NCBI GenBank assembly: GCA_963734745.1
Contig: CAVTIG010000001.1
Location: 129,571-193,570, forward strand
Direction of reading: 5' to 3'
Length of the DNA stretch: 64,000 nucleotides
DNA from: an uncultured Solirubrobacterales bacterium
GTDB taxonomy: Bacteria > Actinomycetota > Thermoleophilia > Solirubrobacterales > 70-9
The notes beneath the pieces were generated by a model. The model had not been told where the DNA came from, made no database searches, and worked only from the letters and a program-made list of their open reading frames with translations. A program made the position numbers and the translations under genes. Below are positions 1,472-57,643 of the stretch, piece after piece; the first letter of the stretch is position 1, and every line of letters starts with the position of its first letter.

Positions 1472-1789
1472 ATGAGCGATTCCGGCACCGAGATCCCCAA
1501 GGGCAGCTACGCGGCCGGCAACCGGGTCAAGCTGCCGGCCGGCGCCGAGGCCCCCTTTGTCGTCTTCATCAACGGCGTCGAGCAGAGCGAGGGCGCCGAC
1601 TACGAGGTCCGCGGCGGCGAGATCGTCTTCACCCGCCCGATCGTCAAGGAGAAGGTCGGCACCGGCCGCTGGCTGGCGATGTACCTGGGCCTCTTCGGGA
1701 CCTACCGCAAGGACGAGACGATCGACCTCCAGTTCACCCGCAACGACAAGACCGAACTCCGCGACAACCTCCCGGTAGAGCCGAACTGA
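1472..1789 (+). CDS. hypothetical protein (105 aa)
   Basis: ORF with host-like G/C-ending codons between gltA and the REP pair. No domain recognised by eye. Confidence 0.5.
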   Translation: MSDSGTEIPKGSYAAGNRVKLPAGAEAPFVVFINGVEQSEGADYEVRGGEIVFTRPIVKEKVGTGRWLAMYLGLFGTYRKDETIDLQFTRNDKTELRDNLPVEPN

Positions 1790-1846
1790 GCTTCCGCTGT
1801 TCCTTTGCCCTGATATGTGCGGCTAAAGCACAGCGCAGCGGCAGAT
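1788..1846. repeat. REP-like palindromic element, degenerate copy (tandem with the next)
   Basis: The 5' arm CTTCCGCTGTTCCTTTGCCC (1791-1810) is intact. The 3' arm GGCTAAAGCACAGCGCAGCGG is a decayed version of GGGCAAAGGAACAGCGGAAG. Confidence 0.7.
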
Positions 1847-1847
1847 C

Positions 1848-1902
1848 CGAGCTTCCGCTGTTCCTTTGCCCTAAATAACTGGGCAAAGGAACAGCGGAAC
1901 TT
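1848..1902. repeat. REP-like palindromic element, perfect copy
   Basis: TTCCGCTGTTCCTTTGCCC (1853-1871), 9-nt loop TAAATAACT, GGGCAAAGGAACAGCGGAA (1881-1899): a perfect 19-bp stem. Lies between convergent stop codons at 1789 and 1910. Confidence 0.9.
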
Positions 1903-1909
1903 GGTGGGG

Positions 1910-2863
1910 CTACTTGAAGACGTAGAGCAGGGCGAAGGCGATCAGGGCGAAGGCGACTACGCCGGCGATTAGGCCCTTGTCCTCGGCGACGATCGCTGCT
2001 GTGGAGCGGTCGTCGGCTCGGTCGTAGATCAAGTAGAGGTAGCGGAAGATGCAGTAGACGGCCGGCGGGATCGTCCACATCATCTTGTTGCCGATGATCG
2101 GCGAGTTGACCGCGTAGATCGCGTAGCTGATCACGGTGCCGGTGGTGACCATGGCAACCATCTGGTCGAGGAACGGCAGCGAGTAATGCTCCAGCACCGG
2201 ACGGGAGCTGGTTCCCTCGTGCAGCTCGGAAACGGCCTCCTGGCGGCGCTTGGTGACGCCCAGGAAGAGGGCAAGCATGCCGGTGCAGAGGATCAGCCAC
2301 TCGGAGGCGTGCGCGTCGACGGCGCTGGCGCCGGCGGCGACCCGCAGGATGAAGAGGCCGGCCAGGGTCATCACGTCGACGATCACGATCTGCTTGAGGC
2401 CAAGGCTGTAGGCGACCTGGGCTATCCCGTAACCAACCACCATCAGCCCGACCTGCCAGTTCACCGTGGCGAAGGCGAGGCCGATCGCCCCAGCGGCGAG
2501 CAGCGGCGCGATCGTCATCGCCCTGCCCTCCGAAAGCTCGCCGGCCGCCAGCGGCCGGAAGCGCTTCTTCGGATGCTTGCGGTCCAACTCAATGTCAACC
2601 AGGTCGTTCACGTAGTAGCCGGCGCTGGAGATCCAGCAGAAGGCGATGAAGGTGAGGACCGCCGCCAGCACGTCGTGCGGCTGGTTGAACTTGCCCGAGA
2701 AGAGCAGCCCGGCGAAGACGAAGACGTTCTTGACCCACTCGTGCGGCCGCCCGGTCTTGATCGCGGCACGCAGCGGCGAGCGCCGCGGCACAACAGGTTC
2801 CACGCCCTCGTCCTGCCCGGCGCCAGCCGAGACGGTCGAATGTTCGGAAGTGATTGTCTCCAT
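1910..2863 (-). CDS. UbiA-family prenyltransferase, decaprenyl-phosphate phosphoribosyltransferase-like
   Basis: 317 aa, multi-TM. The motif YYVNDLVDIELDRKHPKKRFRPLAAG is typical of the DPPR-synthase (Rv3806c-type) branch. Confidence 0.85.
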   Translation of the reverse strand: METITSEHSTVSAGAGQDEGVEPVVPRRSPLRAAIKTGRPHEWVKNVFVFAGLLFSGKFNQPHDVLAAVLTFIAFCWISSAGYYVNDLVDIELDRKHPKKRFRPLAAGELSEGRAMTIAPLLAAGAIGLAFATVNWQVGLMVVGYGIAQVAYSLGLKQIVIVDVMTLAGLFILRVAAGASAVDAHASEWLILCTGMLALFLGVTKRRQEAVSELHEGTSSRPVLEHYSLPFLDQMVAMVTTGTVISYAIYAVNSPIIGNKMMWTIPPAVYCIFRYLYLIYDRADDRSTAAIVAEDKGLIAGVVAFALIAFALLYVFK

Positions 2864-4503: not shown

Positions 4504-6495
4504 TTACCAGTGGACGCCTTTCATCAAGTGCGCAAAAGCCAAGGCCTCGGTGGTCGGAGCTTTGTCGGGAGCCTCTTCCCCTTTCCCCTTCGCGGCCTGC
4601 GACTCCGGAAAGAGCCTGTAGGCCGCGCTGAGGATTGTGTCCGAGAACTTCGGCGCCACGTTGTAGAGCAGCTCGCCGAAGTTGCCCAGCCTCGTCGCCA
4701 CCTTCTTCGGCCGCTCGACCATCGCCTTGGCGATCATCTCGGCCGCCTCCTCCGGGGCGATCGCCGGGAACGCGTCGTACATCCGCGTCGGGGCGATCAT
4801 CGGCGTCCTCACCAGCGGCATGTGGATCGTCGTGATGTGGACACCGTCGTCGATCACCTCCGAGGCGATCACCCGGCTGAACGCATCGAGCGCCGCCTTC
4901 GAGGCCACGTAGGCCGAGAACCGCGGCGGGTTGGTCTGGGTGCCGATCGAGCTGACGTTGATGATGTGGCCCGATTTGCGCGCCCGCATCTCCGGCAGCA
5001 GCGCCAGGATCAGCCGCACCGCGCCCAGATAGTTGAGTTGGATCGTCCGCTCGTAGTCGTGGAAGCGGTCGTAGGAGAGGGCGACCGAGCGGCGGATCGA
5101 GCGGCCCGCGTTGTTGACCAGGATGTCGACCTGGCCGTGGTAGGCGAGCACCTCGCCGGCCATCCGCTCGACGTCCTCGATGTCCGACATGTCGCAGCGG
5201 TGGACGTGGGCGACGCCGCCGGCTCGCTCGATCTCCTCCTTGGTCCCCTCCAGTTTCTCGACCGAACGCGCCACCAGCAGCACCGTCGCCCCGGCGTCGG
5301 CCACCTTCACCGCGGTCGCTTTGCCGATCCCCGACGAGGCCCCGGTGATCAGCACCACCTTGCCCCGCACCGCGCCCGACAGCGAGCGGTCCTTGAACAG
5401 GTCCGGGTCGAGGTTGCGCTCCCAGTAGTCCCAGAGGCGGTCGGCGTAGGTCTCCAGAGGCGGGACCTCGATCCCCGACCCCGCCAGCGCCGCCTGCGCG
5501 TTCGTGCAGTCGAAGGTCGTCGGGTAGTTGACGTAGCGGACAACCGACGCCGGGATCCCCATCTCATTCAGCACCGCCTTGCTGATCCGCTTGGCCGGCG
5601 GGAACAGCTTCAGCCAGGCTCCGGTCAGCGAGATCGCCGAGTCGGTCACCTCGGAGTCCAGCCGCAGCGCCATCTGCGGCGCGTCCGCCGCCCGCGCGAA
5701 GAGGTTGACCACCTCGCCCGCCGACTTCGGGTGCGGGTCGGTCAGGTGGAAGGCCTGCCCGTCCAACCCGGGCTCGTGGGCGATGTGGTCGATCGCCGCC
5801 GCGACGAAGTCGACCGGGACGATGTTGATCTCCCGCCCCTCGAGCCCCACGGTCGGCAGCCACGCCGGCAGCACCCGCCGCGCCCGCTGAAGCAGCTTGA
5901 AGAAGTAGTAGGGGCCGTCGATCTTGTCGATCTCGCCGCTCCGCGAGTCCCCGACCACGATCCCTGGCCGGTAGACCCGCCAGGGCCGTCCGCAATCCTC
6001 GCGCACGACCCGCTCGGACTCGTGCTTGGTCCGGAAGTAGGGATTGGTGTCGAGCTTCTCGGCCTCCTCGAACATGTCCTCGCGCCACTCGCCCCGGTAC
6101 AGCCCGGCGGCGGCGATCGAGCTGATGTGGTGGAAGCAGCCCGCCTCGATCGCCGTGGCCAGCTCCACCGCGTGCCGCGTCCCCTCGACGTTGGCGATCT
6201 CCTGGGCCTCGGCGCCGGCGGTCATGTCGTAGATCGCCGCCAGGTGGAAGAAGTGGTCGACCTCGCCGCGCAGCGTCACCAGGTCCTCCTCGGAGACCCC
6301 CAGCCCTGGCTGCGAGAGGTCGCCGGCGACCGGTACGACCCGTGCCCCGTCCGCTCCCCAGCCGGTCCGCAGCTCCTCCAGCCGGCCCCGCGACCCGGCC
6401 CGGACCAGCGCGTAGATCGTTCCCTCGCGCTTCAGCAGCCGCTCGACGAGGTTGCGGCCGATGAACCCGGTCGCGCCAGTCAGGAAGTAATTCAT
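4504..6495 (-). CDS. bifunctional fatty acyl-CoA reductase-like / short-chain dehydrogenase (AcrA1/Rv3391-like architecture)
   Basis: 663 aa. N-terminal thioester-reductase/epimerase Rossmann domain (YFLTGATGFIGRNL) is fused to a C-terminal classical SDR (VLITGASSGIGKA ... YVASKAAL). Confidence 0.85.
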   Translation of the reverse strand: MNYFLTGATGFIGRNLVERLLKREGTIYALVRAGSRGRLEELRTGWGADGARVVPVAGDLSQPGLGVSEEDLVTLRGEVDHFFHLAAIYDMTAGAEAQEIANVEGTRHAVELATAIEAGCFHHISSIAAAGLYRGEWREDMFEEAEKLDTNPYFRTKHESERVVREDCGRPWRVYRPGIVVGDSRSGEIDKIDGPYYFFKLLQRARRVLPAWLPTVGLEGREINIVPVDFVAAAIDHIAHEPGLDGQAFHLTDPHPKSAGEVVNLFARAADAPQMALRLDSEVTDSAISLTGAWLKLFPPAKRISKAVLNEMGIPASVVRYVNYPTTFDCTNAQAALAGSGIEVPPLETYADRLWDYWERNLDPDLFKDRSLSGAVRGKVVLITGASSGIGKATAVKVADAGATVLLVARSVEKLEGTKEEIERAGGVAHVHRCDMSDIEDVERMAGEVLAYHGQVDILVNNAGRSIRRSVALSYDRFHDYERTIQLNYLGAVRLILALLPEMRARKSGHIINVSSIGTQTNPPRFSAYVASKAALDAFSRVIASEVIDDGVHITTIHMPLVRTPMIAPTRMYDAFPAIAPEEAAEMIAKAMVERPKKVATRLGNFGELLYNVAPKFSDTILSAAYRLFPESQAAKGKGEEAPDKAPTTEALAFAHLMKGVHW

Positions 6496-14794: not shown

Positions 14795-14942
14795 CGATCG
14801 AATAACCGAAACGCCGAGTCCCGTGCGCTATGGAGGCGCCGCGGGAGCGGGGGAACCACGTTTTCGGGGCTAACCCACCTCAGCTCTGGTGGGGGCGCAA
14901 GCTCCTTTCGCGCCAGCCCGACAGCTAACCCCGTAGGCCGAC
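14795..14942 (+). promoter_or_regulatory. cyclic-di-AMP riboswitch (ydaO-yuaA class)
   Basis: Contains the conserved blocks GAGCGGGGGAACCA (14845-14858), CGGGGCTAACCC (14865-14876) and CCAGCCCGACAGCTAACCCCGTAGGC (14912-14937). These match the pseudo-symmetric ydaO consensus (GAGCGGGGGACCCA ... GGGGUGAAUCC ... CCCGA..CAGCUAACCUCGUAAGC). It ends directly at the RBS GAAGGAG (14943-14949) of an NlpC/P60 gene, a typical actinobacterial context. Confidence 0.75.
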
Positions 14943-14955
14943 GAAGGAGATCGGT

Positions 14956-23137: not shown

Positions 23138-23192
23138 GGTTCCGCTGTTCCTTTGCCCAGTTATATGGGGATAAAGAACAGCGGAAGCTGGG
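23138..23192. repeat. REP-like palindromic element
   Basis: TTCCGCTGTTCCTTTGCCC (23140-23158), loop AGTTATAT, GGGGATAAAGAACAGCGGAA (23167-23186). The 3' arm has two changes. Located immediately 3' of the mutase stop (23195). Confidence 0.85.
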
Positions 23193-23194
23193 GG

Positions 23195-24841
23195 TTAGAA
23201 GAAGGCGCCGCCCTTGTACTCGCCGAAGACGTCTCGCATCGCGCCGCAGACCTCGCCTATCGAGGCGTTGGCGGCTAGGGCGGCGCGGATCGGGTGGAGG
23301 AGGTTGCCCTCGCCGCGGGCGACGTCGCGCAGGGACTCCAGCTTCGCCGTCACGTCGGCCTGGTCGCGCGCCTCCTTGAAGGCCTTGAGCCGGGCGAGCT
23401 GGCGCTGCTCGGCCTCGGGGTCGACCCTGAGGATGTCGACGTCGTCGACCTGGTCGGTGACGTACTTGTTGACGCCGACGACGACGTCCTGGCCGGTCTT
23501 GTAGCGCTCGTGGTAGGAGAGCGCCGACTCCTCGATCTCGCGCTGCATGAACTCCAGCGCCTCGACCGAGCCGCCCAGCTCCTCGACCTTCTTCATCAGC
23601 TCCCAGGAGCGCGCCTCGATCTCGTCGGTCAGCGACTCGATGAAGTAGGAGCCGGCGAAGGGGTCGACTGTGTCGGCGGCGCCGGACTCGTGGGCGAGGA
23701 CCTGCTGGGTGCGCAGGGCGATCCGCGCCGAGCGCTCGGTCGGCAGCGCCAGCGCCTCGTCGAAGCCGTTGGTGTGGAGGCTCTGCGTGCCGCCGCAGAC
23801 CGCGGCGAAGCCCTGCAGCGCGACGCGGATGATGTTGACCTCGGGCTGCTGGGCCTGCAGCGTCACCCCGCCGGTCTGGGTGTGGAAGCGGATCTTCATC
23901 GAGTTGGGGTCGGCGGCCCCGAAGCGCTCCTCGACGATCTTCGCCCACATCCGCCGCACCGCGCGGAACTTGGCGACCTCCTGGAAGACGTTGTTGTGGC
24001 AGTTGAAGAAGAAGGCGAGGCGCGGGGCGAACTCGTCGATCGCGAGGCCTCGCTCCAGCGCCGCCTCGACGTAGGCGATCGCGTTGGAGAGGGTGAAGGC
24101 GACCTCCTGCACGGCCGAGCAGCCCTTCTCGCGGATGTGGTAGCCGGAGATCGAGATCGTGTTCCACTTCGGCACGTTGTCGCGGCAGTACTCGAAGATG
24201 TCGGTGGTCAGCCGCATCGTCGGCGCCGGCGGGTAGATGTAGTTGCCGCGCGCCATGTACTCCTTCAGCACGTCGTTCTGGACGGTGCCGCGCAGCTTCT
24301 CGGAGGGAACGCCCTGCTCCTCGCCGACCAGCTCGTAGAGGAGCAGCAGGATCGCCGCCGGGGCGTTGATCGTCATCGAGGTGGAGACGCTGTCGAGGGG
24401 GATCTGGTCGAAGCAGATCCGCACGTCCTCGATCGTGTCGATCGGGACGCCGGTGCGGCCGACCTCGCCGCGGCAGAGCGGGTCGTCGGAGTCGCGGCCG
24501 AGCTGGGTCGGCAGGTCGAAGGCCATCGAGAGGCCGGTCGAGCCGTGCGCGATCAGGTAGCGGTAGCGCTCGTTGGTGTCGTCGGGGCTGGCGAAGCCGG
24601 CGTACTGGCGCATCGTCCAGAGCCGGTCGCGGTACATGCCCTCGTGGATGCCGCGGGTGAAGGGCGGCGAGCCGGGCAGGCCGAGGCGCTCTTCGAGGCC
24701 GGGGGCCACGTCCTCGGAGGTGTAGAGGCGCTCGATCTCGATCCCCGAGTCGGTGAAGACGCGCTCGTCGTCGGGGCCGACCACCGGGGCGATCGTGCGG
24801 GGGGCCTCCTCCGCGGGGGGGTTGCCGGTCTTGCGAGTCAT
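23195..24841 (-). CDS. methylmalonyl-CoA mutase family, catalytic (TIM-barrel) large subunit without B12-binding domain
   Basis: 548 aa. Motifs FTRGIHEGMYRDRLWTMRQYAGF, GTVQNDVLKEYMARGNYIYPP and SISGYHIREKG. The ORF ends before any cobalamin-binding module. Confidence 0.92.
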   Translation of the reverse strand: MTRKTGNPPAEEAPRTIAPVVGPDDERVFTDSGIEIERLYTSEDVAPGLEERLGLPGSPPFTRGIHEGMYRDRLWTMRQYAGFASPDDTNERYRYLIAHGSTGLSMAFDLPTQLGRDSDDPLCRGEVGRTGVPIDTIEDVRICFDQIPLDSVSTSMTINAPAAILLLLYELVGEEQGVPSEKLRGTVQNDVLKEYMARGNYIYPPAPTMRLTTDIFEYCRDNVPKWNTISISGYHIREKGCSAVQEVAFTLSNAIAYVEAALERGLAIDEFAPRLAFFFNCHNNVFQEVAKFRAVRRMWAKIVEERFGAADPNSMKIRFHTQTGGVTLQAQQPEVNIIRVALQGFAAVCGGTQSLHTNGFDEALALPTERSARIALRTQQVLAHESGAADTVDPFAGSYFIESLTDEIEARSWELMKKVEELGGSVEALEFMQREIEESALSYHERYKTGQDVVVGVNKYVTDQVDDVDILRVDPEAEQRQLARLKAFKEARDQADVTAKLESLRDVARGEGNLLHPIRAALAANASIGEVCGAMRDVFGEYKGGAFF

Positions 24842-32402: not shown

Positions 32403-32455
32403 AGCTCCGCTGTTCCTTTGCCTCATATAACGGGGCAAAGGAACAGCGGAGGGGG
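32403..32455. repeat. REP-like palindromic element
   Basis: CTCCGCTGTTCCTTTGCC (32405-32422), loop TCATATAACGG, GGCAAAGGAACAGCGGAG (32434-32451): a perfect 18-bp stem. Directly abuts the stop of the IMPase gene (32457). Confidence 0.9.
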
Positions 32456-32456
32456 T

Positions 32457-33278
32457 TCAGGGCTGTTGCTGGGCGGCGCGGATGACCGCCAGGCCCCGGT
32501 CGCCCGCGGCGGCGGCGATCGGGTAGCGGGCGTCGAGGCCGAGGCCGGCCTCTTCCGGCGGAAGATCCCCGAACGCCACCCTCCCCCCCGCCTCGCTGAC
32601 GATCAACTGCGCGGCGGCGGCGTCGACCGAGCGGCAGGGGCGCAGCCCAAGCATCGCGTCGAAGCGACCGGCGGCGACGTAGGCGAGGCTGATCGCGATC
32701 GAGCCGACCACGCGGAGGCGGTAGACCTTGCCGGCCAGCGCCTCCAACACCGGGAGCGCGCGCCCCGGCTCCGCCGCCTCGACGCCGAGCAGCTCCAGCA
32801 TCTCGCCGTCCTCGGCGACGTGGATCGCCTCCCCGTCCAGCGTTGCGCCTCTGCCGCGCCAGGCGACGAACTCCTCGGAGGCGCCGAAGTCGTAGACGAA
32901 GCCGAACTCGACCTCGGCCATCGAGGGGCCCGAGGCCAGCGCGACGCTGAGGCTGTGGGAGGGAAGCGTGCGACGGGCGTTGAGCGAGCCGTCGATCGGG
33001 TCGATCACGACCCGCGCCTCGCCGCCCTCGCCGAAGCCGACCTCTCCCCGCTCCTCGGAGACGGCGACGAACGACGCCCCCTCCGCCGCGAGCGCCTCCA
33101 GCTCGGCGAAGACCGCGTCCTCGCAGCGGCGGTCGATGACCAGGCTGCGGTCGCCGCCCTTGCCGACCCCCTCGTAGACGGTGCGCGCCTCGGCACCGCG
33201 AACCCGATCGAAGATCTCCTGCTGCGCCTCCACCACGCGGCGGCAGATTCCCAGCCAGTCTGCGGAAAAAACGTCCAT
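32457..33278 (-). CDS. inositol monophosphatase family protein
   Basis: Start MDVFSADW (ATG 33278). Motifs VIDPIDGSLNA and GSIAISLAYVAAGRFD. The track ORF overextends upstream. Confidence 0.85.
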   Translation of the reverse strand: MDVFSADWLGICRRVVEAQQEIFDRVRGAEARTVYEGVGKGGDRSLVIDRRCEDAVFAELEALAAEGASFVAVSEERGEVGFGEGGEARVVIDPIDGSLNARRTLPSHSLSVALASGPSMAEVEFGFVYDFGASEEFVAWRGRGATLDGEAIHVAEDGEMLELLGVEAAEPGRALPVLEALAGKVYRLRVVGSIAISLAYVAAGRFDAMLGLRPCRSVDAAAAQLIVSEAGGRVAFGDLPPEEAGLGLDARYPIAAAAGDRGLAVIRAAQQQP

Positions 33279-33311
33279 CGGCCGGATGCTATGGCGCGGT
33301 AGCGTTGGACG

Positions 33312-36144
33312 ATGCTTGCCCTGGCCGAAGCGCAGGAGCGTGTGGTGCTCCATGACGAAGGCCCGCTGCTCGTGGTCGGCACGGCCGGGACCGGCAAGAC
33401 CGAGGCGCTGGCGCGACGGCTGGCCCGGCTGGCCGGCGATGGGATCGGGCCGGAACGGGTCCTGGTCCTGACCTCGACCCGGGCCACGGCGCGGCGCCTG
33501 CGCGAGCGCACCGAGGTGCTGCTCGACGGTCCCTACGAGGAGCTCTGGATCGGGACCTGGGAGGCGATCGGCGAGCGGCTGCTGCGCGAGCACTCCACCG
33601 CCGCGGGCCTCGATCCCTTCTTCGACGTCCTGGGTCCGGCCGAGCGCCTGGCGATGCTGCTCGACCGCCTCGACGACCTCCCCCTCCGCCACCACGAGAT
33701 TCGCGGCAACCCGGCCGGCCTCCTCGCCCGCCTGCTGCAACGAATCGACGCCCTCAAGTCCGGCTCCGAACCCCCCGAGCCCGAGCTGGCCGAGTTCACC
33801 GCAGCCCACGACCGAATCCTCGCCGACTCCGGCAACCTCGACGAGGGCGACGTCTTCCTAACCCTCAACAAGCTCCTCCACGAACGTCCCGACGTCCGCA
33901 TCCAGATCGCCACAAGCTTCACGCACCTGATGGTCGACGAGTACGAGGACACCACCTCGGCCCAGCGAGCAATCCTCTCGTCCCTCCAAGCTGAGAACCC
34001 AAACCACGTCTACGCGATGGAGGACGGAGTCGCTCCTCCCGCGGAGCGCATCGTCCTTGACCGTGTATTTCGCGAGCCCGAGGTCAAGCTTCTGGCGTTG
34101 CCGCAACGAGCGCGCCCAGGCTCAGGCAGTCGCCCGCGAAGTCGAGCACCTGGTCGCCGGAGGCACCCCGCCTGAAGCAATTTGCGTGCTGTTTGGCGAC
34201 CCGGCCCGCCAGGGCGGCGCGGTCGCGGCGGCGATGGAGGAGCGCGGCATCCCGTTCCACCTCGCCGGTCCCGCCGCCCTGTTCCAGCGCCCCGAGGTCC
34301 GCGACGCGATCGCCTGGCTGCGGGTGCTGGCCGACCCCGACGACTCGGCCGCCGCGGCCCGCGCCCTGACCCGGCCGCCGGTCGAGCTGCGCTCCGCCGA
34401 CCTGGCGCGGCTGACGACGATCGCGCGGCGGCGCAAGCTCGACATGGTCTCCGGCTGCGAGGCGGCGCTCGACAGCCCCCAGATCCAGCCCGAGGCGCGG
34501 GAGCGGATCCAGTCCTTCCTGAAGCTCTACCGCGCCGCGTCGGCGGCGATGGAGGAGCGGCGCGCCGACGTCTTCGTGCGGCGGCTGATCGAGCGGGTCG
34601 GGCTGCGGCGGCAGCGGCTGTTCGCCGCGCAGCCGGAGGTCGCCGAGCGGCTGCTCAGCCTCTCGCGGCTGGCCGAGCTGGCGGCCGCCTGGGCGCGGCG
34701 CGAGCCGCACGGCTCGACCCGGGGCTTCGTCCGCTACCTGAGCGCCGTCGCCGAGGCGGGGGTGGAGATGCGCGACGGCGAGGACCCGGCGGCGGTCAGC
34801 GCCGTCCAGGGCCTCGACTTCTCCGCGGCGAAGGGGGAGGCTTTCGACCACGCCTTCGTGCTGGGGCTGGAGCGCGACGGTGGCGCGGCGCGGATCGGCA
34901 GCCCGGCGCGGGCGGGGCTCGTCCTCTCGCGGGTCGGTCACGACGCCGACGGCGCCACCCGCCCTTCCCCCTTCTACGAGGAGGCGCGCGCCGCCGCCGG
35001 GGCGCCGCGGGAGGAGGTCCACGAGGAGGAGCTGTTCGGGCCGGCCGAGGGCCTGCACGCCACCTACCGGATGCTGCGCGAGGAGGTGCTGGAGGCCTCG
35101 TGGAAGGCGGGGCGGGAGCTCTCGGAGCCGCGCCTCGACACCGCCGTCGACGTGAACAGGGCGATCGCCCGCTACCTGGAGCTGCTGAAGCTGGCGGCGC
35201 TGGCGCAGCGGCCGGGCGACGAGGCGACGGCCGAGGCGGTCGAGGCGGTCAACGGGCTGCTGCGCCAGGTCGCCACCCCGGAGCAGCAGGCCGAGCTGGA
35301 CGCCTCCCCGCTCGACTCCTACCTGCTCGACTCCGAGCGCGAGCGCGGCCGCCGCCGCGAGCTGATCGCCGCCCGCGAGGAGCCCTCGCTGGCGGCCTTC
35401 CTGCCGCGCCGCGGCGACAAGCGGCTGAGCCTCTCGGCCTCCGACCTCGGCCTCTACCTGACCTGCCCGCTGAAGTACAAGTTCGCGCGGGTCTTCGGCA
35501 TCCCGCAGGAGCCGACGATCAACCAGCGCTTCGGCATCCTCGTCCACAACGTGCTGGAGCGCTTCCACAAGGAGGACGCCGAGGGCGAGGAGGACGGGCT
35601 GCAGCGGCTGATCGGCCTCTTCGAGGCGGGATGGCGACGCTCGGGCTTCGGCTCCAGCGACGACGAGCTGCAGTATCGCGAGCGCGGGCGCGAGGCGATG
35701 CGCCTCTACTGGGAGCGAGAGCAAGTCGCCGAGGGGAAGCCGGTCTGGCTGGAGCGCAAGTTCGACTTCCGGATCGGCGAGCACCACGTGCGCGGGCGGG
35801 TCGACCGGGTCGACCGGCTGCCGGACGGCGGCCACGAGCTGATCGACTACAAGACCGGCGAGCGCAAGACCGAGGCCGACCTCGCCGAGGACCTGCAACT
35901 GGCCCTCTACCGGCTCGCGGCACGCGAGGCGTGGGGCATCGAGGCCGGGATCGGCAGCTACTACTACGTGCTCGACGCCGAAAAGGTGGCGGCGCCGACC
36001 AAGCCCGACGACGCCGAGCGGGTGGAGCGGACGGTGCTCCAGGTGGGCGAAGGGGTGCTCAGTCAGGACTTCGAACCGCGGCCCTCGACCACCGTCTGCG
36101 GCTGGTGCGACTACAGACTTATCTGTCCTGCCGCTGAGAGTTAG
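33312..36144 (+). CDS. UvrD/Rep-family helicase fused to a C-terminal PD-(D/E)XK (RecB/Cas4-like, Cys-cluster) nuclease; apparent frameshift near 34089
   Basis: Walker A GTAGTGKTEAL and DExx-like MVDEYEDTT. Nuclease motifs GRVDRVD...ELIDYKTG and a terminal CGWCDYRLICP. The frame changes between FREPEVK and FWRCRNERAQAQAVAREVEHL. Confidence 0.8.
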
Positions 36145-42395: not shown

Positions 42396-45300
42396 ATGCC
42401 CGGCTTTCGCCCCGTCGACCCCAAGCAGTCCTTCCCCGAGCTGGAGGAGCGCGTCCTGGCGCGCTGGCGCGAGCGCGACGTCTTCCACCGCTCGCTCGCC
42501 AACCGCGAGGGCGCCGAGGTCTGGAGCTTCTACGAGGGGCCGCCGACCGCCAACGGCCGCCCCGGCTCCCACCACGTCCTCTCCCGCGTCTTCAAGGACG
42601 TCTACCCGCGCTACCGCACGATGCGCGGCTACCGCGTCCCGCGCAAGGCCGGCTGGGACTGCCACGGCCTGCCGGTCGAGCTGGAGGTCGAGAAGGAGCT
42701 GGGCATCTCCTCCAAGCAGGAGATCGAGGAGTACGGGATCGCCGAGTTCAACCGGCGCTGCCGCGAGTCGGTCTTCGAGTACGTCGAGGAGTGGAACCGG
42801 CTGACCGAGCGGATCGGCTTCTGGATCGACCTCGACGACCCCTACGTCACCCTCGACGACGACTACATCGAGTCGGTCTGGTGGTCGCTGCGCAAGCTCT
42901 GGGACGACGGGCGGCTCTACGAGGGCCACAAGGTCGTCCCCTACTGCCCGCGCTGCGGCACCGCGCTCTCCTCGCACGAGGTGGCGCTGGGCTACAAGGA
43001 CGTCGAGGACCCGTCCATATACGTGCGCTTCCCGCTGCTCGACGAGGGCGGCGGCGAGACGGGCGAGTCGCTGCTGGTCTGGACGACGACGCCGTGGACG
43101 CTGCCCGGCAACGTCGCGGTCGCGGTCGCGCCCGACGTCACCTACGTGCGGGCGCGGGTCGGCGAGCGAGACGCTGGTCCTCGCCGAGCCGCTGGTCGAG
43201 AAGGTGCTCGGCGAGGACGTCGAGGTCGCTCGACCGCTTCCCCGGCCGCGACCTGGTCGGCCGTCGCTACAAGGGCCCCGTCTTCGACGCTCACCGACCG
43301 CGGGCCGCGGCGGCTTCCCGGTCCTCGCCGGCGACTTCGTCACCACCGAGGACGGCACCGGCCTCGTCCACATCGCCCCCGCCTTCGGCGAGGACGACTA
43401 CGCGGTGGCCGCCGAGAACGGCATCTTCGACCCGACCAGCCACGGCACCCTCTACAACCCGGTCGGCCTCGACGGCAACTTCGACGACCGGGTCACCGGC
43501 TTCGCAGGGCCGCTTCGTCAAGGACCCCGAGGTGACCGCGGGCGCTGATCGCCGACCTCGACGCGCCGCGGCCTGCTCTTCCGCGAGCAGGTCTACGAGC
43601 ACGCCTACCCGCACTGCTGGCGCTGCGGCACGCCGCTCCTCTACTACGCCAAGTCGAGCTGGTACGTCGCCACCTCGCAGGCACGCGACGCAGCTGCTCG
43701 CCAACAACGAGCAGATCGGCTGGCACCCCGAGCACATCAAGCACGGCCGCTTCGGCAAGTGGCTGGAGAACAACGTCGACTGGGCGCTCTCGCGCGACCG
43801 CTACTGGGGCACGCCGCTGCCGATCTGGGAGTGCGCCGGCGAGGGCTGCGACGGGCGCTTCTGCGCCGGCTCGGTCGCCGAGCTGCGCGAGCGGGCGAGG
43901 GGCGAGGTCCCGGACGACCTCCACCGCCCCTACATCGACGAGGTGACGCTCGACTGCGAGCGCTGCGGCGGCGAGATGCGCCGGGTCGAGTCGGTGATCG
44001 ACACCTGGTACGACAGCGGCGCGATGCCCTTCGCGCAGTTCCACTACCCGTTCGAGAACGAGGAGCTGTTCGAGGAGCGCTTCCCGGCCGACTTCATCTG
44101 CGAGGCGATCGACCAGACCCGCGGCTGGTTCTACACCCTGCTCGCCGAGTCGACCCTGCTCTTCGACACCTCCAGCTACCGCAACTGCGTCTGCCTCGGC
44201 CTGATCCTCGACCCCGAGGGCCAGAAGATGTCGAAGAGCAAGGGCAACGTGGTCGAGCCCTGGGACGTGATCGGCGCCCACGGCGCCGACGCCTTCCGCT
44301 GGTACTACCTGACCGCGCAGCAGCCCTGGTCGGGCTACCGCTTCTCGGTCGAGACGGTCGGCGAGTCGGTCCGCCAGTTCCTGCTCACCCTCTGGAACAC
44401 CTACTCGTTCTGGGTCCTCTACGCGAACGCCGAGAACCTGGGCCCCGCCGACTTCGACCCCCCACACCGCTTCGCTGTTCCTTTGCCCCGAATAGCGGGG
44501 CAAAGGAACAGCGGAACGCGGGGGAGGACCTCGACCGCTGGGCGCTCTCGCGGCTGCAGGCGACGATCGCGACGGTGCGCGAGCGGATGGACGAGTTCGA
44601 CTGCACCGCCGCCGGGCGGGCGATCGCCGCCTACGTCGAGGAGCTCTCCAACTGGTACGTGCGGCTCTCGCGCCGCCGCTTCTGGGACGGCGACCGCGCC
44701 GCCTTCGCGACGCTGCGCCACTGCCTGCTGGAGACGGCGGCGCTGCTCGCCCCCTTCACCCCCTTCCTCGCCGACGAGATCCACCTCAACCTGGCCGGCG
44801 GGGAGGCGGAGGAGCTGGGCGAGCTGCCCGACTCGGTCCACCTGCGCGACTTCCCCGAGCCCGACCCGGCGCTCGCCGACCCCGAGCTGGAGGCGGCGAT
44901 GGAGGCGGTGCGGCTGCACGGTCGAGCTGGGCCGCGCCGCCCGCGCCCAGGCGAAGGCCAAGGTGCGCCAGCCGCTGCGCCGCGCCGTGATCGTCGCCAC
45001 CGACGCCGAGCGCGAGGCGATCTCGGCCCGCGCCGACCTGGTCAAGGCCGAGCTGAACGTCAAGGAGCTGGACTTCGTCTCCGAGCGAGGGCGAGCTGGT
45101 CAGCTACGCGGTCAAGCCCAACTACCGCGCGCTCGGGCCGCGCTTCGGCAACCGGATGCCGCAGGTGGCCGCCGCGGTCGAGGCGCTCGACCCGGCGCAC
45201 GTCGCCGAGGTGATGTCCGACGGCGGCGAGGTCGGGATCAACGTCGACGGCGACGACCACACGATCGGCCCCGACGACGTCACCCTCGCCCTGCAGCCGC

Positions 45301-45620
45301 TGGAGGGCTACGAGGTCGAGGCCGAGGCGGGCCACGCGGTGGCCCTCCAGCTGGAGCTCGACGACGAGCTGCGCCGCGAGGGCCTCGCCCGCGAGATCGT
45401 CCACGCGGTCCAGAACGCCCGCAAAGAGGCGGGCCTGGAGATCACCGACCGGATCGAGCTGACCCTGGGCGGCGACGAAGAGCTCCTCGCCGCCGCCCGG
45501 GAGCACGAGCCCTACCTGACCGGCGAGGTCCTCGCCACCTCGGTCGCCTACGACGCGACCGACGGCGCCGCGGCCAAGGTCGACGGCCGCGAGCTGCGGA
45601 TCGCCCTCAGCCGGGCCTGA
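42396..45620 (+). CDS. ileS: isoleucine--tRNA ligase, interrupted by about 10 apparent 1-nt frameshifts and carrying an intragenic REP-like element
   Basis: Conserved IleRS text is recoverable across three frames: [99 protein letters not shown] and the C-terminal ELRIALSRA. No in-segment nonsense codons. Confidence 0.9.
44468..44520. repeat. REP-like palindromic element inside the ileS coding sequence
   Basis: TTCGCTGTTCCTTTGCCCC (44471-44489), loop GAATAGC, GGGGCAAAGGAACAGCGGAA (44497-44516). The 5' arm lacks one C relative to its own 3' arm and to all other copies. Confidence 0.9.
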
Positions 45621-45626
45621 AACCGA

Positions 45627-45652
45627 GTCGCGCCTCCCGAAGGAGGCGCGAC
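45627..45652. terminator. hairpin between convergent ileS and trxA (probable bidirectional terminator)
   Basis: GTCGCGCCTCC / loop CGAA / GGAGGCGCGAC: a perfect 11-bp stem. Confidence 0.6.
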
Positions 45653-45677
45653 GAGGAGGTACCGGTTGTGAAGGTCG

Positions 45678-48807: not shown

Positions 48808-51700
48808 CTCTTCCAGCAGGAAGACGAAGGACTCGTACGGCGCGCCGGTGGCGCGGGTGAGGCCGATCTCGCAGGTGCGGTTGCTGGAGAGGTGGGCGTC
48901 GAAGCTGGCGGCCGCTGAGCTCCTCGGCCTGATCGCGCGTTGCGGAGGCGGTCAACTCGGGGTGGGAGATGCCGCGGTCGCCGGCGAAGCCGCAGCAGGT
49001 CGCCGACGGGGCGACGTAGACGTCGTCGGCGAGGGCGTCGGCGAGAGAGCGCGAGCCGCCCGGCGAGACCCATGTGGCGGGTCGCGCAGGTCGGGTGGAC
49101 GGTGGCCGAGCCGACCCGCTCGCCGACCTCGAGCCAGGGCAGCAGGCGGTCGTGCGCCCAGGCGACCGAGTCGACGATCTCCAGCTTGCCGAGCCGCTCG
49201 GCGTTTTCCTCGCTCAGCACCCCCTCGCCCGGGTCGACGACGCCATGGGTACAGGAGGCGGCGTCGATCACGATCGGCAACGCGCCCTCGCCGCTCCAGT
49301 CCCAGAGGCGCTCGACCATCTCGTTCGCCTTGTGGCGGTGGGCCTCGCCGAAGCCTTTCGAGCTCCAGGGCAGCCCACAGCAGGTGCCGATCACGTCGTC
49401 GGGTATCCAGACGGGCAGGCCGGCGCGACGCGAGACCTCGACCAGAGCCTCGGCGACCAGGCGACCACCGCCGATGGGCCTGAAAAGTGCGCCTATATCG
49501 TCGACTTTTCGGCCCATCGGCGGGGGGGGGCCGAAGATGCGGTTGGTGCAGGAGGGGACGTAGACGGCGGCGGCGCCCTCGTGCAGGGTCGTTGGCAGCT
49601 TCCCGGGCGCCGGCGCGGGCAACCCCCGCCCTCGCTTGGTCCGCCGCGCCAGCGGCCCGCCGAGGCGCAGGCCGGCGCGCGACGCGCCTCTCGACCACGC
49701 CCCAGCGCTTGGCGATGGCGAGCGCCGCACGCTCCGCACGCTCGGTGTGCCGCTTGGCGCGCAGCTCCTTGACCAGCTTGCCGGTGTCGATCCCGAGCGG
49801 GCAGGCGAGCTGGCAGGAGCCGTCCGCGGCGCAGGTCTCCAGCGAGTCGTACTCGTACTCCTCCAGCAGCGCCCGCTGTACGCGGCGAGCCCGCCGGCTG
49901 GCGGGCCATCTCGCGCCGCAGCACGATCCGCTGGCGCGGCGTCGTGGTCAGGTTGCGGCTCGGGCAGACCGGCTCGCAGAAGCCGCACTCGACGCAGGTG
50001 GTCGCGGACTCCTCGATCGCGCGGCGTCGTTTTCAGGTTGCGCAGGTGCGCCTCCGGGTCGCGGTTCAGCACGACGCCCGGGAGCGAGCACCCCGTCGGG
50101 GTCGGCCAGCCGCTTCACCCGCCACATCAGCTCGGTCGCCTTCTCCCCCCACTCGCGCTCCACGTAAGGGGCCATGTTGATCCCGGTGCCGTGCTCGGCC
50201 TTCAGCGAGCCGTCGTACTTGCCGACGATCAGCTCGACCAGCTTCGCCATGAAGGCCTCGTAGCGGTCGAGGTCCTCCTGCTTGGCGAAGTCGGGGGTGA
50301 GCATGAAGTGGAGGTTGCCGGCGGAGGCGTGGCCGGCGACGCCGGGCAGGAAGCCGTGCTCGCCGAGCAGCGCCTGCAGGTCGCGGGCGCCCTCGGCGAT
50401 CCGCTCCGGCGGCACGCAGACGTCCTCGACGATCAGCGACGTGCCGGGCAGCCGCAGCCGGCCGACCAGCCCGTGCAGGCCCTCGCGCACGCGCCAGGCC
50501 AGCTCGATCTCCTCGGCGTCGCGGGTGAAGGCGATCGGGCGGATCAGCTCGTGGGAGGCGAGGATCTCGTTCGCCTTCGCGACGTAGTCGTCGAGCTCCG
50601 CGTCGGTGGCGGCGCCGAACTCGACCAGGAGCACCGCCGACTCGGGCGGCAGCTCCTTCCACTCCTCGGGGGCGCCGACCATGTTCCAGGCGGCGGTGAT
50701 CAGCGCCGGGGCGACCATCAGCTCGACCGCGGTGGCGCCGCGATCGACCAGGTCGCGGACCGGGGCGACCGCCTCGTCGATGCCGGGGAAGTGGATCCAG
50801 GAGGTGGCGGTGCGGGCGGGCAGCGGCACCGTCTCGAAGACCGCCTCGGCGAGGAAGGCGAGCGTGCCCTCCGAGCCGACGATCAGGCGGCGGAAGATCT
50901 CCAGCGGCTCGTCGGCGTCGAGGAAGGCGCAGAGCCGGTAGCCGGTCGTGTTCTTGATCGCGAACTTGCGGCGGATGCGCTCGCTCAGCTCGGCGTCGGC
51001 GCGGATCTCGTCGCGGATCGCCGCGAGGCCGGCGGCCAGCTCGGGCTCCGCGGCGGCGAAGCGCTCGGCCGCGCCGGGCGCCGCGGTGTCGATCAGTCGT
51101 GCCGGAGGGCAGCACGAAGGTCATCGAGCGGACGGTCGAGTAGGAGTCGTGGACGACGCCGCAGCGCATCCCGCCCGAGTTGTTGGCGATCACCCCGCCG
51201 ACCGTGGCGATGTCGGTGCTGGCCGGGTCGGGGCCGAGCTTGCGGCCGTGCGGGGCGAGGACGCGGTTGGCGTGGCCGAGCACGGTGCCGGGCTTGACGC
51301 GGGCCAGAGCGCCGCCCTCCTCGACCGAGACGCCGCCGAAGTGGCGGCGCACGTCGACCAGGATCCCGTCGCTCTGCCCCTGGCCGTTGAGGCTGGTGCC
51401 GCCGGCGCGGAAGGTGACGGGGACGCCGCGCTCGCGGCCGTAGGCGAGGACCTTGGCGACGTCGCCGGCGTCGCGGGCCATCACCACCGCCTGCGGGAAG
51501 AGCCGGTAGGGGCTGGCGTCGGAGGCGTAGCGGACGATGTCGCTGACGCGTCCCAGCACCCGGTCGGCGCCGAGCAGCGCCTCCAGCTCGCCGCGCAGCG
51601 GCTGCGCGGCGCCGGCGGCGAGCGCGTCCGGGGCGCGGTCGGGGGCCGGCTCCGAGGGCTCCGGCGCCAGCGCCTCGACCCTGTGCTTCAGCAGCGCCAC
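48790..51700 (-). CDS. FAD-binding and Fe-S/CCG-domain oxidoreductase (GlcD-GlcF-type fusion, D-2-hydroxyacid dehydrogenase-like), at least 5 apparent frameshifts
   Basis: GTG 51700. FAD domain (FRAGGTSLNGQ, ATVGGVIANNSGG), oxidase C-domain (GSLKAEHGTGINMAPYVEREWG) and a Cys-rich C-terminal half (TCCGLPWSSKGF, DAASCTHG, CCGFAGDRG). The text is distributed over three frames. Confidence 0.8.
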
Positions 51701-51709
51701 CGGCCGCCC

Positions 51710-53322
<1,613 letters not shown>

Positions 53323-53336
53323 CTACCCCGCCTCCC

Positions 53337-53392
53337 CGCTCCGCTGTTCCTTTGCCCCGCTATATCCAGGCAAAGGAACAGCGGAAGCTTGT
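53337..53392. repeat. REP-like palindromic element
   Basis: TCCGCTGTTCCTTTGCC (53340-53356), loop CCGCTATATCCA, GGCAAAGGAACAGCGGA (53369-53385), flanked by AAGCTT. Lies in the divergent gap between the ThDP enzyme and the M15 peptidase. Confidence 0.88.
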
Positions 53393-54764: not shown

Positions 54765-56082
<1,318 letters not shown>

Positions 56083-56095
56083 CCTCGCCGCTCCC

Positions 56096-56148
56096 AGCTT
56101 CCGCTGTTCCTTATCTGCAAATAACGGGGTAAAGGAACAGCGGAGCGA
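56096..56148. repeat. REP-like palindromic element (tandem pair, copy 1, slightly degenerate)
   Basis: CTTCCGCTGTTCCTTATC (56098-56115), loop TGCAAATAAC, GGGGTAAAGGAACAGCGGAG (56126-56145). Confidence 0.85.
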
Positions 56149-56157
56149 CGCTTCCCA

Positions 56158-56210
56158 CGCCGCGCTGTTCCTTTGCTCCATATAACGGGGCAAAGGAACA
56201 GCGGAAGCTT
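56158..56210. repeat. REP-like palindromic element (tandem pair, copy 2)
   Basis: CGCGCTGTTCCTTTGCTCC (56161-56179), loop ATATAAC, GGGGCAAAGGAACAGCGGAAG (56187-56207). Ends 3 nt before the convergent ALDH stop (56213). Confidence 0.88.
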
Positions 56211-56212
56211 CT

Positions 56213-57643
56213 CTAACCCTGAAGGGTTACGAAGCGCTCTTCGGTCAGCTCGATCACCGCGTAGGCGGGGCCCTCGCGGGTGTTGCCCGAGTCCTTGACG
56301 CCGCCGTAGGGCTGCTGGTCGGCGCGGAAGGTCGGGACCTCGTTGATCAGGACGCCGCCGAACTCGAGCGACTCGGCCGCCTGCAACCCGCGCCCCACGT
56401 CGCGGGTGAAGACACCCGCCTGGAGGCCGAACTTGGAGTCGTTCGCCATCTCCAGCGCCTCTTCGAAGCCCGAGTAGCGGTCGACCGTCGCCACCGGGCC
56501 GAAGACCTCCTCGCACCAGACCTTGGCCTCGCGCGGCGGGGCCTCGATCACGGTCGGCGCCAGGCAGCGGCCCTCGTCGACCAGCTCGCCGCCGGTCAGC
56601 AACTTCGCGCCGGACGCCACTGCTTCGTCGATCCACTCCTTGACCCGGTCGCGGTCGTGCCGGGAGATCAGCGGGCCGACGTCGGTCTCGGGATCGAGCG
56701 GGTCGCCGACCCGCAGCGCCTCGGCGTTGGCGACGAAGCGCTCGATGAAGGCGTCGGCGACGTCCTCGTGGACGAGCACCCGCTGGACCGAGATGCAGCT
56801 CTGTCCGGCGTGGGAGAAGGCGTGGAGCTTCGCCTTGTCGGCGGCGGTCTCCCAGTCGCCGTCGGAATGGACGATCAGCGGCGCGTTGGAGCCCAGCTCC
56901 AGGTTGACCTTCTTGTGGGGGACGCGGCTGCGGATCCCCCAGCCGACCTTCGAGGAGCCGGTGAAGGTCAGCGCCCGGGTCAGCTCGTGCTCGACGATCG
57001 CGTTGCCGACCTCTGCGCCGGGGCCGGGGATGACGCTCAGCCACCCCTGCGGCAGGCCCGCCTCGGCCAGCACCTCGGCCAGCTTCAGCGCCGAGATCGG
57101 GGTCTGGCCGGCCGGCTTGAGGACGACCGCGTTGCCGGCGGCGATCGCCGGCCCGAGCTTGTGGGCGACCAGGTTGAGCGGGAAGTTGAAGGGGCTGATC
57201 GCCCCGACCACGCCGTAGGGGACGCGCAGCATCACGCCGAGCTTGCCGGCGCCGGCGGCCGAGGCCTCCATCGGCACCGTGCCGCCGGTCAGCTTGCGCG
57301 CCTCCACAGCGGAGAAGGTGAGGGTGCTGACGCAGCGGGCGGCCTCCACCCGGGCGGTCTTCAGCGGCTTGCCGGCCTCGGCGGCGATCGTCAGGGCGAG
57401 GTCGTCGAGCCGCTCGCCGACCAGCTCGGCGGCGCGGTCGAGCACCGCGGCGCGGGCGTGCTGGGGGAAGCCGCCGCCCTCGAAGGCCTCCTGCGCGGCG
57501 CGCGCGGCGCGGTCGACCAGCGCGGCATCGCCCTGCGCGACCCGCCCGACCACGGTCCCGTCGTAGGGGCTGCGGACCTCGTCCCACTCATCGGTTGCCA
57601 TCCACTCGCCGGCCGCGAAGAGCTTGTGGTCGACCGCTTCCAC
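56213..57643 (-). CDS. NAD(P)-dependent aldehyde dehydrogenase
   Basis: 476 aa, uninterrupted. FTGSSKVG, ELGSNAP, and FSHAGQSCIS carrying the catalytic Cys. Confidence 0.9.
   Translation of the reverse strand: MEAVDHKLFAAGEWMATDEWDEVRSPYDGTVVGRVAQGDAALVDRAARAAQEAFEGGGFPQHARAAVLDRAAELVGERLDDLALTIAAEAGKPLKTARVEAARCVSTLTFSAVEARKLTGGTVPMEASAAGAGKLGVMLRVPYGVVGAISPFNFPLNLVAHKLGPAIAAGNAVVLKPAGQTPISALKLAEVLAEAGLPQGWLSVIPGPGAEVGNAIVEHELTRALTFTGSSKVGWGIRSRVPHKKVNLELGSNAPLIVHSDGDWETAADKAKLHAFSHAGQSCISVQRVLVHEDVADAFIERFVANAEALRVGDPLDPETDVGPLISRHDRDRVKEWIDEAVASGAKLLTGGELVDEGRCLAPTVIEAPPREAKVWCEEVFGPVATVDRYSGFEEALEMANDSKFGLQAGVFTRDVGRGLQAAESLEFGGVLINEVPTFRADQQPYGGVKDSGNTREGPAYAVIELTEERFVTLQG

Follow-up and report, generated by a model that had tools for sequence, protein, structure and literature searches.

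A REP-like family of mobile 47-nt palindromes in soil Solirubrobacterales, and its link to an AbiEi-DUF559 nuclease gene

Among the described systems of short palindromic repeats, the closest to the family reported here are the REP elements of E. coli and Pseudomonas together with their RAYT genes (REPtrons). Like the hairpins analysed below, these are short palindromes that number in the hundreds and lie for the most part directly behind genes; they occur as singles and as regular pairs, leave no target duplication, and include one protein gene bracketed by repeats. To our knowledge, RAYT is the only enzyme family that has so far been tied to REP-like repeats, and we know of nobody who can name what spreads or reads most hairpin repeat families, TRIT included. 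Elements of the IS200/IS605 group and their gene-less derivatives (PATEs) are also similar in their end hairpins, in the lack of target duplication, and in having both gene-carrying and short gene-less forms. Rickettsia palindromic elements (RPE), which are 100-150 bp long, alphaproteobacterial and unrelated in sequence to our hairpins, share with them the palindromic form and the in-frame insertion into genes, including essential ones, to which a short peptide is added. The Tuberculosis Rho-independent terminator (TRIT) is a conserved palindromic hairpin, reported only in Mycobacterium, that is bidirectional and clade-restricted, with ~10^2 copies at a very narrow distance from stop codons, the centre lying about 8 nt ahead of the stop (Gardner et al. 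2011, PMC3152330). A specific binding factor was suspected for TRIT, and that paper reported neither an associated gene nor in-frame copies (PMC3152330). Finally, AbiEi antitoxins recognise their own promoters through inverted repeats, to which they bind (PMC3985639, PMC7319586).

The DNA under study, referred to as the window, is a 64-kb stretch with a G+C content of ~70%. A preliminary description made from its sequence had reported eight near-perfect palindromes, and all eight were confirmed at the positions given below. A search with a 21-nt arm, allowing up to three mismatches, returned 10 matches in the window against 0.00 expected from 100 shuffles. With a 12-nt core and up to one mismatch there were 16 matches against 0.29 expected, 15 of them within the eight hairpins. 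An nhmmer profile run on the window found the same eight places only, at 48-62 bits, and nothing weaker.

To describe the element, we compiled 107 copies from the window and 77 related loci, the latter retrieved by an exact 13+13-nt pattern; 99 of these copies could be oriented by their central triplet. The element is 47 nt long and consists of an 18-bp stem (TTCCGCTGTTCCTTTGCC / GGCAAAGGAACAGCGGAA) enclosing an 11-nt loop (nnRnATARCgg), with the consensus yTCCGCTGTTCCTTTGCC - nnRnATARCgg - GGCAAAGGAACAGCGGAr over the 99 oriented copies. The stems of 17-19 bp and loops of 7-12 nt proposed earlier are thus real hairpins, refined here to an 18-bp conserved stem and to 15-nt arm cores that lie exactly 11 nt apart in 101 of 107 copies; the copy at 53337 has 12 nt. 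In the oriented set, stem positions -2 to 15 pair with positions 27 to 44 at 62-100% Watson-Crick (partner-shuffle test), the lowest value belonging to the outermost pair (62%) and the other 17 pairs ranging from 81 to 100%. By the same test the 11 loop nucleotides are no more complementary than their composition predicts. An apical covariation, proposed because the 4+4 nt nearest the loop look complementary by eye, was rejected (shuffle z = 0.2 to 1.5). Outside the stem, the 5' flank is enriched in C and the 3' flank in G (40-59% G at most of positions 46 to 58, past the stem), a mirrored bias that does not amount to pairing in individual copies. The G-run that had been noted after the 3' arm is accordingly a tendency and not a fixed feature.

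A few copies carry compensatory stem variants (CCCAGCTG/CAGCTGGG, CTGAGCTG/CAGCTCAC and TTCCGTGG..CCACGGAA), and because these changes affect both arms they indicate that the stem itself matters, not the sequence alone. The family nonetheless coheres by sequence identity, with only these few compensatory variants. Neither solo arms nor distant arm pairs around a larger element were found in the copy catalogue or the profile search; the arms are not the termini of a known insertion sequence, and none of the findings that the preliminary description had named as refuting it was made. The profile search met almost no decayed copies; as the loci had been retrieved with a pattern requiring 13+13 exact nucleotides, the conservation of the arms and the shortage of decayed copies are partly an effect of retrieval. 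RNA folds of the window copies reach -32 to -43 kcal/mol, with z-scores of -6.6 to -9.1 relative to shuffled sequence. Copies occur in both orientations. Some are single; others form head-to-tail pairs, whose period is always 61 nt and whose 14-nt spacer is conserved in part. An 'inside-out' unit inserting into loops, suggested by the 61-nt period, was discarded as a general mechanism: isolated right-arm/left-arm units never occur.

Genes around the hairpins were called by third-position G+C, a crude method, and those neighbouring the window copies were checked with Pfam. Two dimers are present in the window, at 1788/1848 and 56096/56158. The first unit of the former (1788..1846, minus strand; variant subtype, profile score 47.9 bits) starts 1 nt past the stop of a plus-strand gene (1472-1789), and has one arm of the form CGCTGTGCTTTAGCC on the minus strand and one canonical arm. 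The second unit (1848..1902, plus strand) is canonical, with a perfect 19-bp stem, the loop CTAAATAACTG and a predicted fold of -41.6 kcal/mol, and its end is 8-10 nt short of the stop of a convergent UbiA-family gene (1910-2863, minus strand). A single copy at 23138..23192 (minus strand), supported by fold and profile match, sits within a same-strand gene run, 8 nt past the stop of a methylmalonyl-CoA mutase gene (23195-24841, minus strand) and upstream of a carboxyl-transferase gene. The copy at 32403..32455 (plus strand), flanked by a C-run and a G-run and folding at -43 kcal/mol, is 5 nt from the stop of an inositol-monophosphatase-family gene (32457-33809, minus strand), and the copy at 44468..44520 (plus strand) lies inside the isoleucyl-tRNA synthetase (IleRS) gene. 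The 12-nt-loop copy at 53337..53392 (minus strand), again supported by fold and profile match, lies immediately 5' of a TPP-enzyme gene (51710-53311, minus strand). In the second dimer, the first unit (56096..56148, plus strand) starts 16 nt past the stop of a plus-strand gene (55651-56082) whose called product has a fumarase C-terminal domain, and the second unit (56158..56210, plus strand) ends 6 nt before the stop of a convergent aldehyde dehydrogenase gene (56213-57643, minus strand). The orientations that had been read from the asymmetric loops were borne out, with ATA at 1856, 32408, 44473, 56102 and 56163 and TAT at 1795 and 23143; the copy at 53337 reads GCTATAT, as claimed, and was left unoriented given its 12-nt loop.

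This placement at gene ends is general. Among 144 distinct evaluable copies, 71 start 0-70 nt past a stop codon; their median distance is 8 nt, with quartiles of 4 and 15 nt, and the element lands mostly 0-20 nt past the stop. Gaps between convergent genes are filled by nine copies, and only three copies lie between divergent genes. Copies located after stops show no orientation bias relative to the upstream gene (29 same, 22 opposite), and the polarity of the flanking dinucleotides relative to loop orientation is not significant (20 versus 11). No U-tract follows the hairpin, T making up only 4-25% at positions 45-58 of the 99 oriented copies; lacking a downstream T-run, the hairpins are not canonical intrinsic terminators. 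Judging from their position and fold stability, the resident copies, whose RNA hairpins at the 3' ends of transcripts would be very stable, probably serve as 3'-end barriers or stabilisers, much as has been proposed for TRIT (PMC3152330), and such a role might be the reason why they are tolerated there. By description, TRIT resembles them in its actinobacterial host, its ~10^2 copies, its bidirectionality and its narrow gene-end position, whereas the hairpins start at a median of 8 nt past the stop and TRIT is centred about 8 nt before it.

About 5% of the copies are intragenic, and at least five are inserted in frame, in genes for IleRS (the window and locus L053), a TPP enzyme, Hydantoinase_B, RibD and SDR; in the last four proteins the Pfam domains run on to either side of the insert. 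In every in-frame copy, translation runs in the ATA orientation and gives SAVPLPxIxGQRNSG or RCSFAxxSxAKEQ, an addition of 16-17 codons. The window copy at 44468-44520 occupies an IleRS linker that precedes the DRWxLSRL motif of the anticodon-binding domain. Its left arm lacks one C, and it is in frame once this C is restored; the window IleRS gene contains about eight frameshifts, from which we conclude that the window assembly is indel-noisy. The IleRS orthologue of locus L053 reads straight through the hairpin (..DDFRCSFASDSDAKEQLNDLDLW..), that of L059 has a decayed in-frame version, and in those of L111, L096 and L121 a short unrelated linker stands in place of the hairpin. Compared by description with RPE, the hairpins are shorter, at 47 nt, actinobacterial, and only in this small fraction intragenic. 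The possibility that solo hairpins are relics of lost gene cassettes, like solo LTRs, was rejected: it leaves unexplained why essential genes such as that for IleRS contain copies in frame, and these copies show that the short hairpin itself moves.

Searches of species-representative genomes returned at least 77 loci in at least 17 assemblies, and JGI soil metagenomes contributed 47 further loci, so that the copy number extends well beyond the eight seen at first. Among the matches listed, the assemblies are nearly all MAGs of uncultured Solirubrobacterales or of 'Actinomycetes' / 'Actinomycetota', mostly from Microflora Danica, and the hairpin-bearing genomes include a complete 2.56-Mb chromosome (OY969702.1). 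Four listed loci come from a MAG labelled Syntrophothermus. The best fetched loci are 77-91% identical to the window, none exceeding 91%, so that the window's own genome is not among them, and look-ups of two window proteins by exact match gave no record. In the 1.03 Mb of DNA retrieved we counted 187 hairpins, or approximately one per 5-8 kb in a sample enriched for hairpins; extrapolated from the window, which has one per 8 kb, a genome would carry a few hundred copies. Neither viral contigs nor plasmids gave a hairpin match, and Rfam gave only meaningless sub-threshold matches to microRNA precursors, as is typical for any long hairpin. Because the literature search was negative as well, the initial impression that the repeat belongs to no named family holds for all four sources.

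Comparison of orthologous sites in related genomes indicated that the hairpin is often absent, or is exchanged for a hairpin of another family or a unique hairpin. The TPP-enzyme copy, for instance, appears as 51 additional in-frame nucleotides in L071 relative to L055, and a 55-nt insertion in L074 relative to L026 splits two genes that are translationally coupled in the relative through a TGATG overlap; occupancy also differs between L032/L064 and L112. Net insert sizes between filled and empty orthologous sites are 51, 55, 55-59 and 68 nt. No target-site duplication was found at the filled/empty pairs or around the dimers of locus L075, in junction comparisons between species that are 10-20% apart and with several assemblies that are long-read MAGs containing indel errors. 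Ragged junctions, with 4 to 21 extra nucleotides, were seen between diverged species. Locus L075 contains two 108-nt dimers located 1.1 kb apart that are identical except for 1 nt, have unrelated flanks, and begin and end their identity exactly at the outer stem feet. Loops moreover come in genome-specific flavours: GGGTATAGAGG in OY969702, CGAAATAACAG in CAWDUO, GGGCATAGCGC in CAWANE and YCATATAACGG in the window. At the eight variable loop positions, copies differ by 4.00 within a genome and by 4.64 between genomes, a contrast that none of 2000 label permutations reached. The differences in occupancy, the exact-end dimer, the genome-specific loops and the near absence of decayed copies and solo arms point to amplification within lineages and turnover at the time-scale of speciation. 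The hairpins are therefore a REP-like family of mobile palindromes, copied with exact ends and without target duplication. The preliminary description had proposed a REP- or MITE-like nature with recent mobility or strong selection, and had suggested comparing orthologous loci for presence/absence differences and target-site signatures; sites are indeed filled or empty between related genomes, and no target duplication was seen.

The ORF located between the two L075 dimers combines an AbiEi-like N-terminal part with a C-terminal DUF559/REase_MTES_1575 (Vsr-like) domain. The predicted product of this partner gene is ~300 aa long, an AbiEi-like wHTH followed by a DUF559 nuclease of the Vsr-like PD-(D/E)xK type. 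PADLOC matched residues 7-167 to AbiEi (E = 1e-25), Pfam matched the protein to DUF559 (E = 3.5e-8) and MTES_1575 (E = 1.7e-9), and the nuclease-motif residues D208, E219, D221 and H226 are shared by all of 10 homologues. Throughout the 1.03 Mb of fetched DNA, hairpins lie within 250 nt of the AbiEi-DUF559 gene at 12 of 12 distinct loci, and metagenome-locus homologues of the L075 gene are likewise flanked by hairpins. Public data contain more than 1,271 homologous proteins, many on 1-2 kb contigs, under no other names than 'DUF559' or 'very-short-patch-repair endonuclease'. Seven homologues on long contigs were selected, protein similarity (53-69% identity to the query) being the sole criterion. 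Every one of the seven has a family hairpin at the 5' end of its gene and five have another right past the stop, and the seven genes stand at different sites among housekeeping genes, such as the glmM/glmS gap or the position after rpoC. Given a background of only ~1 hairpin per 5 kb, seven independent upstream hairpins are far beyond chance.

The gene and its hairpins appear to form a unit. A hairpin-gene-hairpin arrangement is found just after IleRS in L111, L096 and L121, where the window has 60 nt with a unique hairpin. The window itself contains neither the AbiEi-DUF559 gene nor fragments of it, and no ORF with an HUH motif, in line with the earlier statement that it lacks a transposase. 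The gene-proximal hairpin is a recurrent variant with the arm CGCTGTGCCTTAGCC, an arm that has only three other matches outside gene loci in a census of the fetched DNA, two of them in gene-less dimers, namely L022-1032 and the window copy at 1788-1846. That window copy had been called decayed, and its arm is indeed odd; it represents this recurrent variant, found upstream of the nuclease gene, and not simple decay. At 9 of 11 loci (seven flagged by script, plus L129 and L131 read from printed translations), the central triplet of the upstream-hairpin loop is in frame with the nuclease ORF, as ATG in four loci and ATA in five. With the triplet in frame, the right arm of the upstream hairpin encodes protein residues 2-8 (A-x-Q-R-N/H-S-G), and the conserved, asymmetric ATA(R)C of dispersed loops mirrors the ATG-GCN start of the gene. 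A promoter within the upstream-hairpin loop was considered and dropped, its spacing to any -35-like sequence being far too short. The hairpin family is thus tightly linked, both structurally and positionally, to the AbiEi-DUF559 nuclease gene. We found no paper in the literature that ties DUF559, AbiEi-fusion proteins or Solirubrobacterales to palindromic repeats.

The likeness of this gene to AbiEi systems lies in the match over the N-terminal 170 aa and in an inverted repeat overlapping its own 5' end, an arrangement also seen in autoregulated abiE operons. It departs from them in its C-terminal nuclease, in an 'operator' that is dispersed in hundreds of copies, and in being solitary, with no adjacent AbiEii (DUF1814) toxin gene in the seven contigs. 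With respect to REP/RAYT, the differences are that the gene encodes AbiEi-wHTH and DUF559 (PD-(D/E)xK) domains and not a Y1 HUH transposase, that the stem is a longer, perfect one of 18 bp and the pairs stand head-to-tail at a constant period of 61 nt, and that the start codon of the partner gene lies in a hairpin loop and the site of the gene differs by genome. The foot of the hairpin also lacks a GTAG-type tetranucleotide, neither GTAG nor CGTC being present in the 99 oriented copies. IS200/IS605 elements differ from the family in having Y1 TnpA or TnpB and a conserved cleavage tetranucleotide, neither of which was seen here, where the palindromes are full and symmetric. The family therefore works like REP/RAYT but without the GTAG tag, and with no RAYT found in ~1 Mb. 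This sample was drawn from many genomes and searched with one RayT sequence and a motif pattern. Queried by phmmer with E. coli RayT, the ~1 Mb of repeat-bearing DNA gave no homologue (best E = 0.41), and the PxHxH-type HUH motif was present in none of 8,730 ORFs of at least 60 aa in ~0.98 Mb, a weak negative, given that the DNA searched covers parts of many genomes. A large protein search with RayT returned enterobacterial relatives only. The RAYT partner that the preliminary description had suggested seeking was thus not recovered from the repeat-bearing DNA, and the hairpin-associated gene is instead AbiEi-DUF559.

We consider it somewhat more probable than its negation, at roughly 55%, that these hairpins are non-autonomous mobile palindromes of the REP kind in a clade of soil Solirubrobacterales, and that the AbiEi-DUF559 protein, in place of a RAYT, is their cognate. 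From the association we infer that this protein mobilises the hairpins. A more specific proposal, which we offer tentatively and would not call probable, is that AbiEi-DUF559 fusions are non-HUH repeat-associated enzymes that excise or copy the 47-nt hairpins as well as their own hairpin-bounded gene, and would be analogues of RAYT with a different fold. The protein might bind the two hairpin arms as a dimer, as AbiEi antitoxins do with the inverted repeats of their own promoters, and its nuclease domain might cut the palindrome or close to it. A hairpin unit freed or copied in this way could then, speculatively, be captured at DNA breaks; such capture would account for the exact ends of the element, for junctions that are ragged and free of target duplications, and for insertion in random orientation. 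We know of no PD-(D/E)xK nuclease that can transpose DNA alone.

Other explanations share parts of this evidence. A functional 3'-end signal comparable to TRIT, that is, a terminator or mRNA-stabilising hairpin read by a host factor, maintained by selection and merely borrowed by the nuclease gene as operator or terminator, would fit the start of the hairpins a few nucleotides past stops, the filling of convergent gaps in both orientations, the very stable folds with pairing kept through compensatory changes, and the substitution of other-family or unique hairpins at orthologous sites; TRIT has the same features (PMC3152330). Yet it does not explain the arrival of identical sequences at new sites, the genome-specific loops or the exact-end duplication of the dimer, and it sits poorly with the lack of a U-tract, with in-frame copies in essential genes, and with copies between translationally coupled genes. 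We regard it as unlikely as a full account, while noting that a 3'-end role can be compatible with mobility. The AbiEi-DUF559 gene could alternatively be a selfish, homing-type gene that cuts pre-existing hairpins and copies itself into them, the hairpins having spread by other means. Its different sites in different genomes, its polymorphic presence and the hairpins on both sides are what such a gene would produce; the near-identity of the L075 dimers would be expected after target duplication or repeat-guided recombination, and the many homologues on 1-2 kb contigs are as expected of repeated or mobile genes. However, the hairpin upstream of the gene is of one specific variant that moves together with it and bears its start codon, which makes this hairpin look like part of the gene unit and not like a split target, and the post-IleRS site of the window holds no hairpin of the 47-nt family that could have been a target. 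This homing scenario, too, we judge improbable.

A classical REP-RAYT system, in which a Y1 (HUH) transposase of the IS200/IS605 type is encoded elsewhere in the genome and the AbiEi-DUF559 gene is only a frequent neighbour, would agree with short, abundant, mostly extragenic palindromes found as singles and pairs without target duplication, and single-copy RAYT genes are easily missed in a ~1 Mb sample. The failure of both the RayT query and the HUH motif search argues against it, as do the hairpin foot without a GTAG-type tag, the head-to-tail and not inverted pairs, and the nuclease gene itself, which is hairpin-associated at every one of the 12 loci with the loop triplet in frame (ATG in 4 of 11); we consider it decidedly unlikely. 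A MITE derived from an insertion sequence with a DDE transposase, the arms being its terminal inverted repeats, seems to us scarcely credible. The perfect 18-nt inverted-repeat arms and the short, abundant character of the family would suit a MITE, but target-site duplication is missing at the filled/empty pairs and at the duplicated dimer, distant arm pairs and solo arms do not occur, and no plasmid or viral sequence matches. Without target duplication and without a parent insertion sequence, the family is not a MITE.

Taken alone, the repeat family would be one more, new member of the REP-like kind; what is novel is the different partner enzyme, provided that it is functional. The reading that we prefer, in which the AbiEi-DUF559 protein is the cognate of the hairpins, supplies a concrete and testable candidate for a repeat-mobilising enzyme, a nuclease with an AbiEi-type DNA-binding domain. 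If the link proves functional, it would provide a first role for the large actinobacterial 'DUF559 / very-short-patch-repair endonuclease' family (more than 1,200 homologues) and a second kind of repeat-mobilising enzyme beside RAYT, and would explain why a compact genome of high GC content has short hairpins at the ends of genes and even within essential ones. Hairpin repeats also have practical consequences, in that they fragment assemblies and mislead gene calling in soil MAGs.

The arms have one further resemblance, a TGTTCC/GGAACA hexamer in common with parS, which we take to be a coincidence; the spacing and the remaining bases do not fit the parS consensus.

All six intragenic copies of the family 1 hairpin (the 47-nt REP-like repeat) that are read in frame are read in the ATA orientation, in which the core of the asymmetric loop shows ATA. 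These are the window copy at 44473, within the isoleucyl-tRNA synthetase (IleRS) gene, and copies in five related loci (L071 2411, L044 3876, L067 2313, L037 5290 and L053 7534). The hairpin has five stop-free frames in total, three of which lie in the opposite orientation; if the frames are assumed to be equally likely, simple arithmetic gives p ~0.004 for an ATA-only reading of six copies. No orientation bias of this kind was found among the copies that start shortly after a stop codon.

The window IleRS gene (42396-45620, plus strand) is broken across approximately eight reading-frame changes. Because this gene is essential, the changes point to indel errors of a long-read assembly, and homopolymer lengths and ORF calls in the window are therefore unreliable. 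Between IleRS and the convergent next gene lies a unique hairpin, GTCGCGCCTCC-CGAA-GGAGGCGCGAC (45630-45665). At the corresponding site, L111 and L121 carry a cassette in which the AbiEi-DUF559 nuclease gene is bracketed by hairpins, and L053 carries an insert of ~3.1 kb. Given these differing contents, the site looks like a hot spot for insertions.

A further copy of the nuclease gene (L128 3001-3984) has inserted downstream of rplM-rpsI and separates glmM from glmS, in what is normally a tight run of housekeeping genes; here a hairpin is present upstream only. In the list of public protein matches, many AbiEi-DUF559 homologues are known solely from contigs of 1-2 kb, as would be expected if flanking hairpins break short-read assemblies.

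We also observed a second palindromic repeat family, with arms CCGAYGGGCCGAWWT and AWWTCGGCCCRTCGG and a loop of ~20 nt, at window 49465-49526 and in L016, L018, L033, L055, L074 and L077. It occupies the same type of site as family 1, namely between convergent genes, and in two orthologous site pairs it stands where a relative has family 1 (window 49465 and L059 5118; L074 ~2442-2568 and L026 1230).

Four of the related loci (L026, L041, L053 and L065) come from JBLNAC01 contigs labelled Syntrophothermus sp. MAG187, and they bear family 1, the Solirubrobacterales hairpin; across the IleRS region, L053 shares 75-91% DNA identity with the window. Probably, either the label is wrong or these contigs were misbinned.

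Elsewhere in the window, a 93-nt tRNA-Val called by ARAGORN (5690-5782, plus strand) falls within a minus-strand coding region (4504-6495) and is probably a false positive. A c-di-AMP (ydaO-type) riboswitch was identified at 14802-14954 on the plus strand (Rfam RF00379, 67 bits versus a gathering score of 38).
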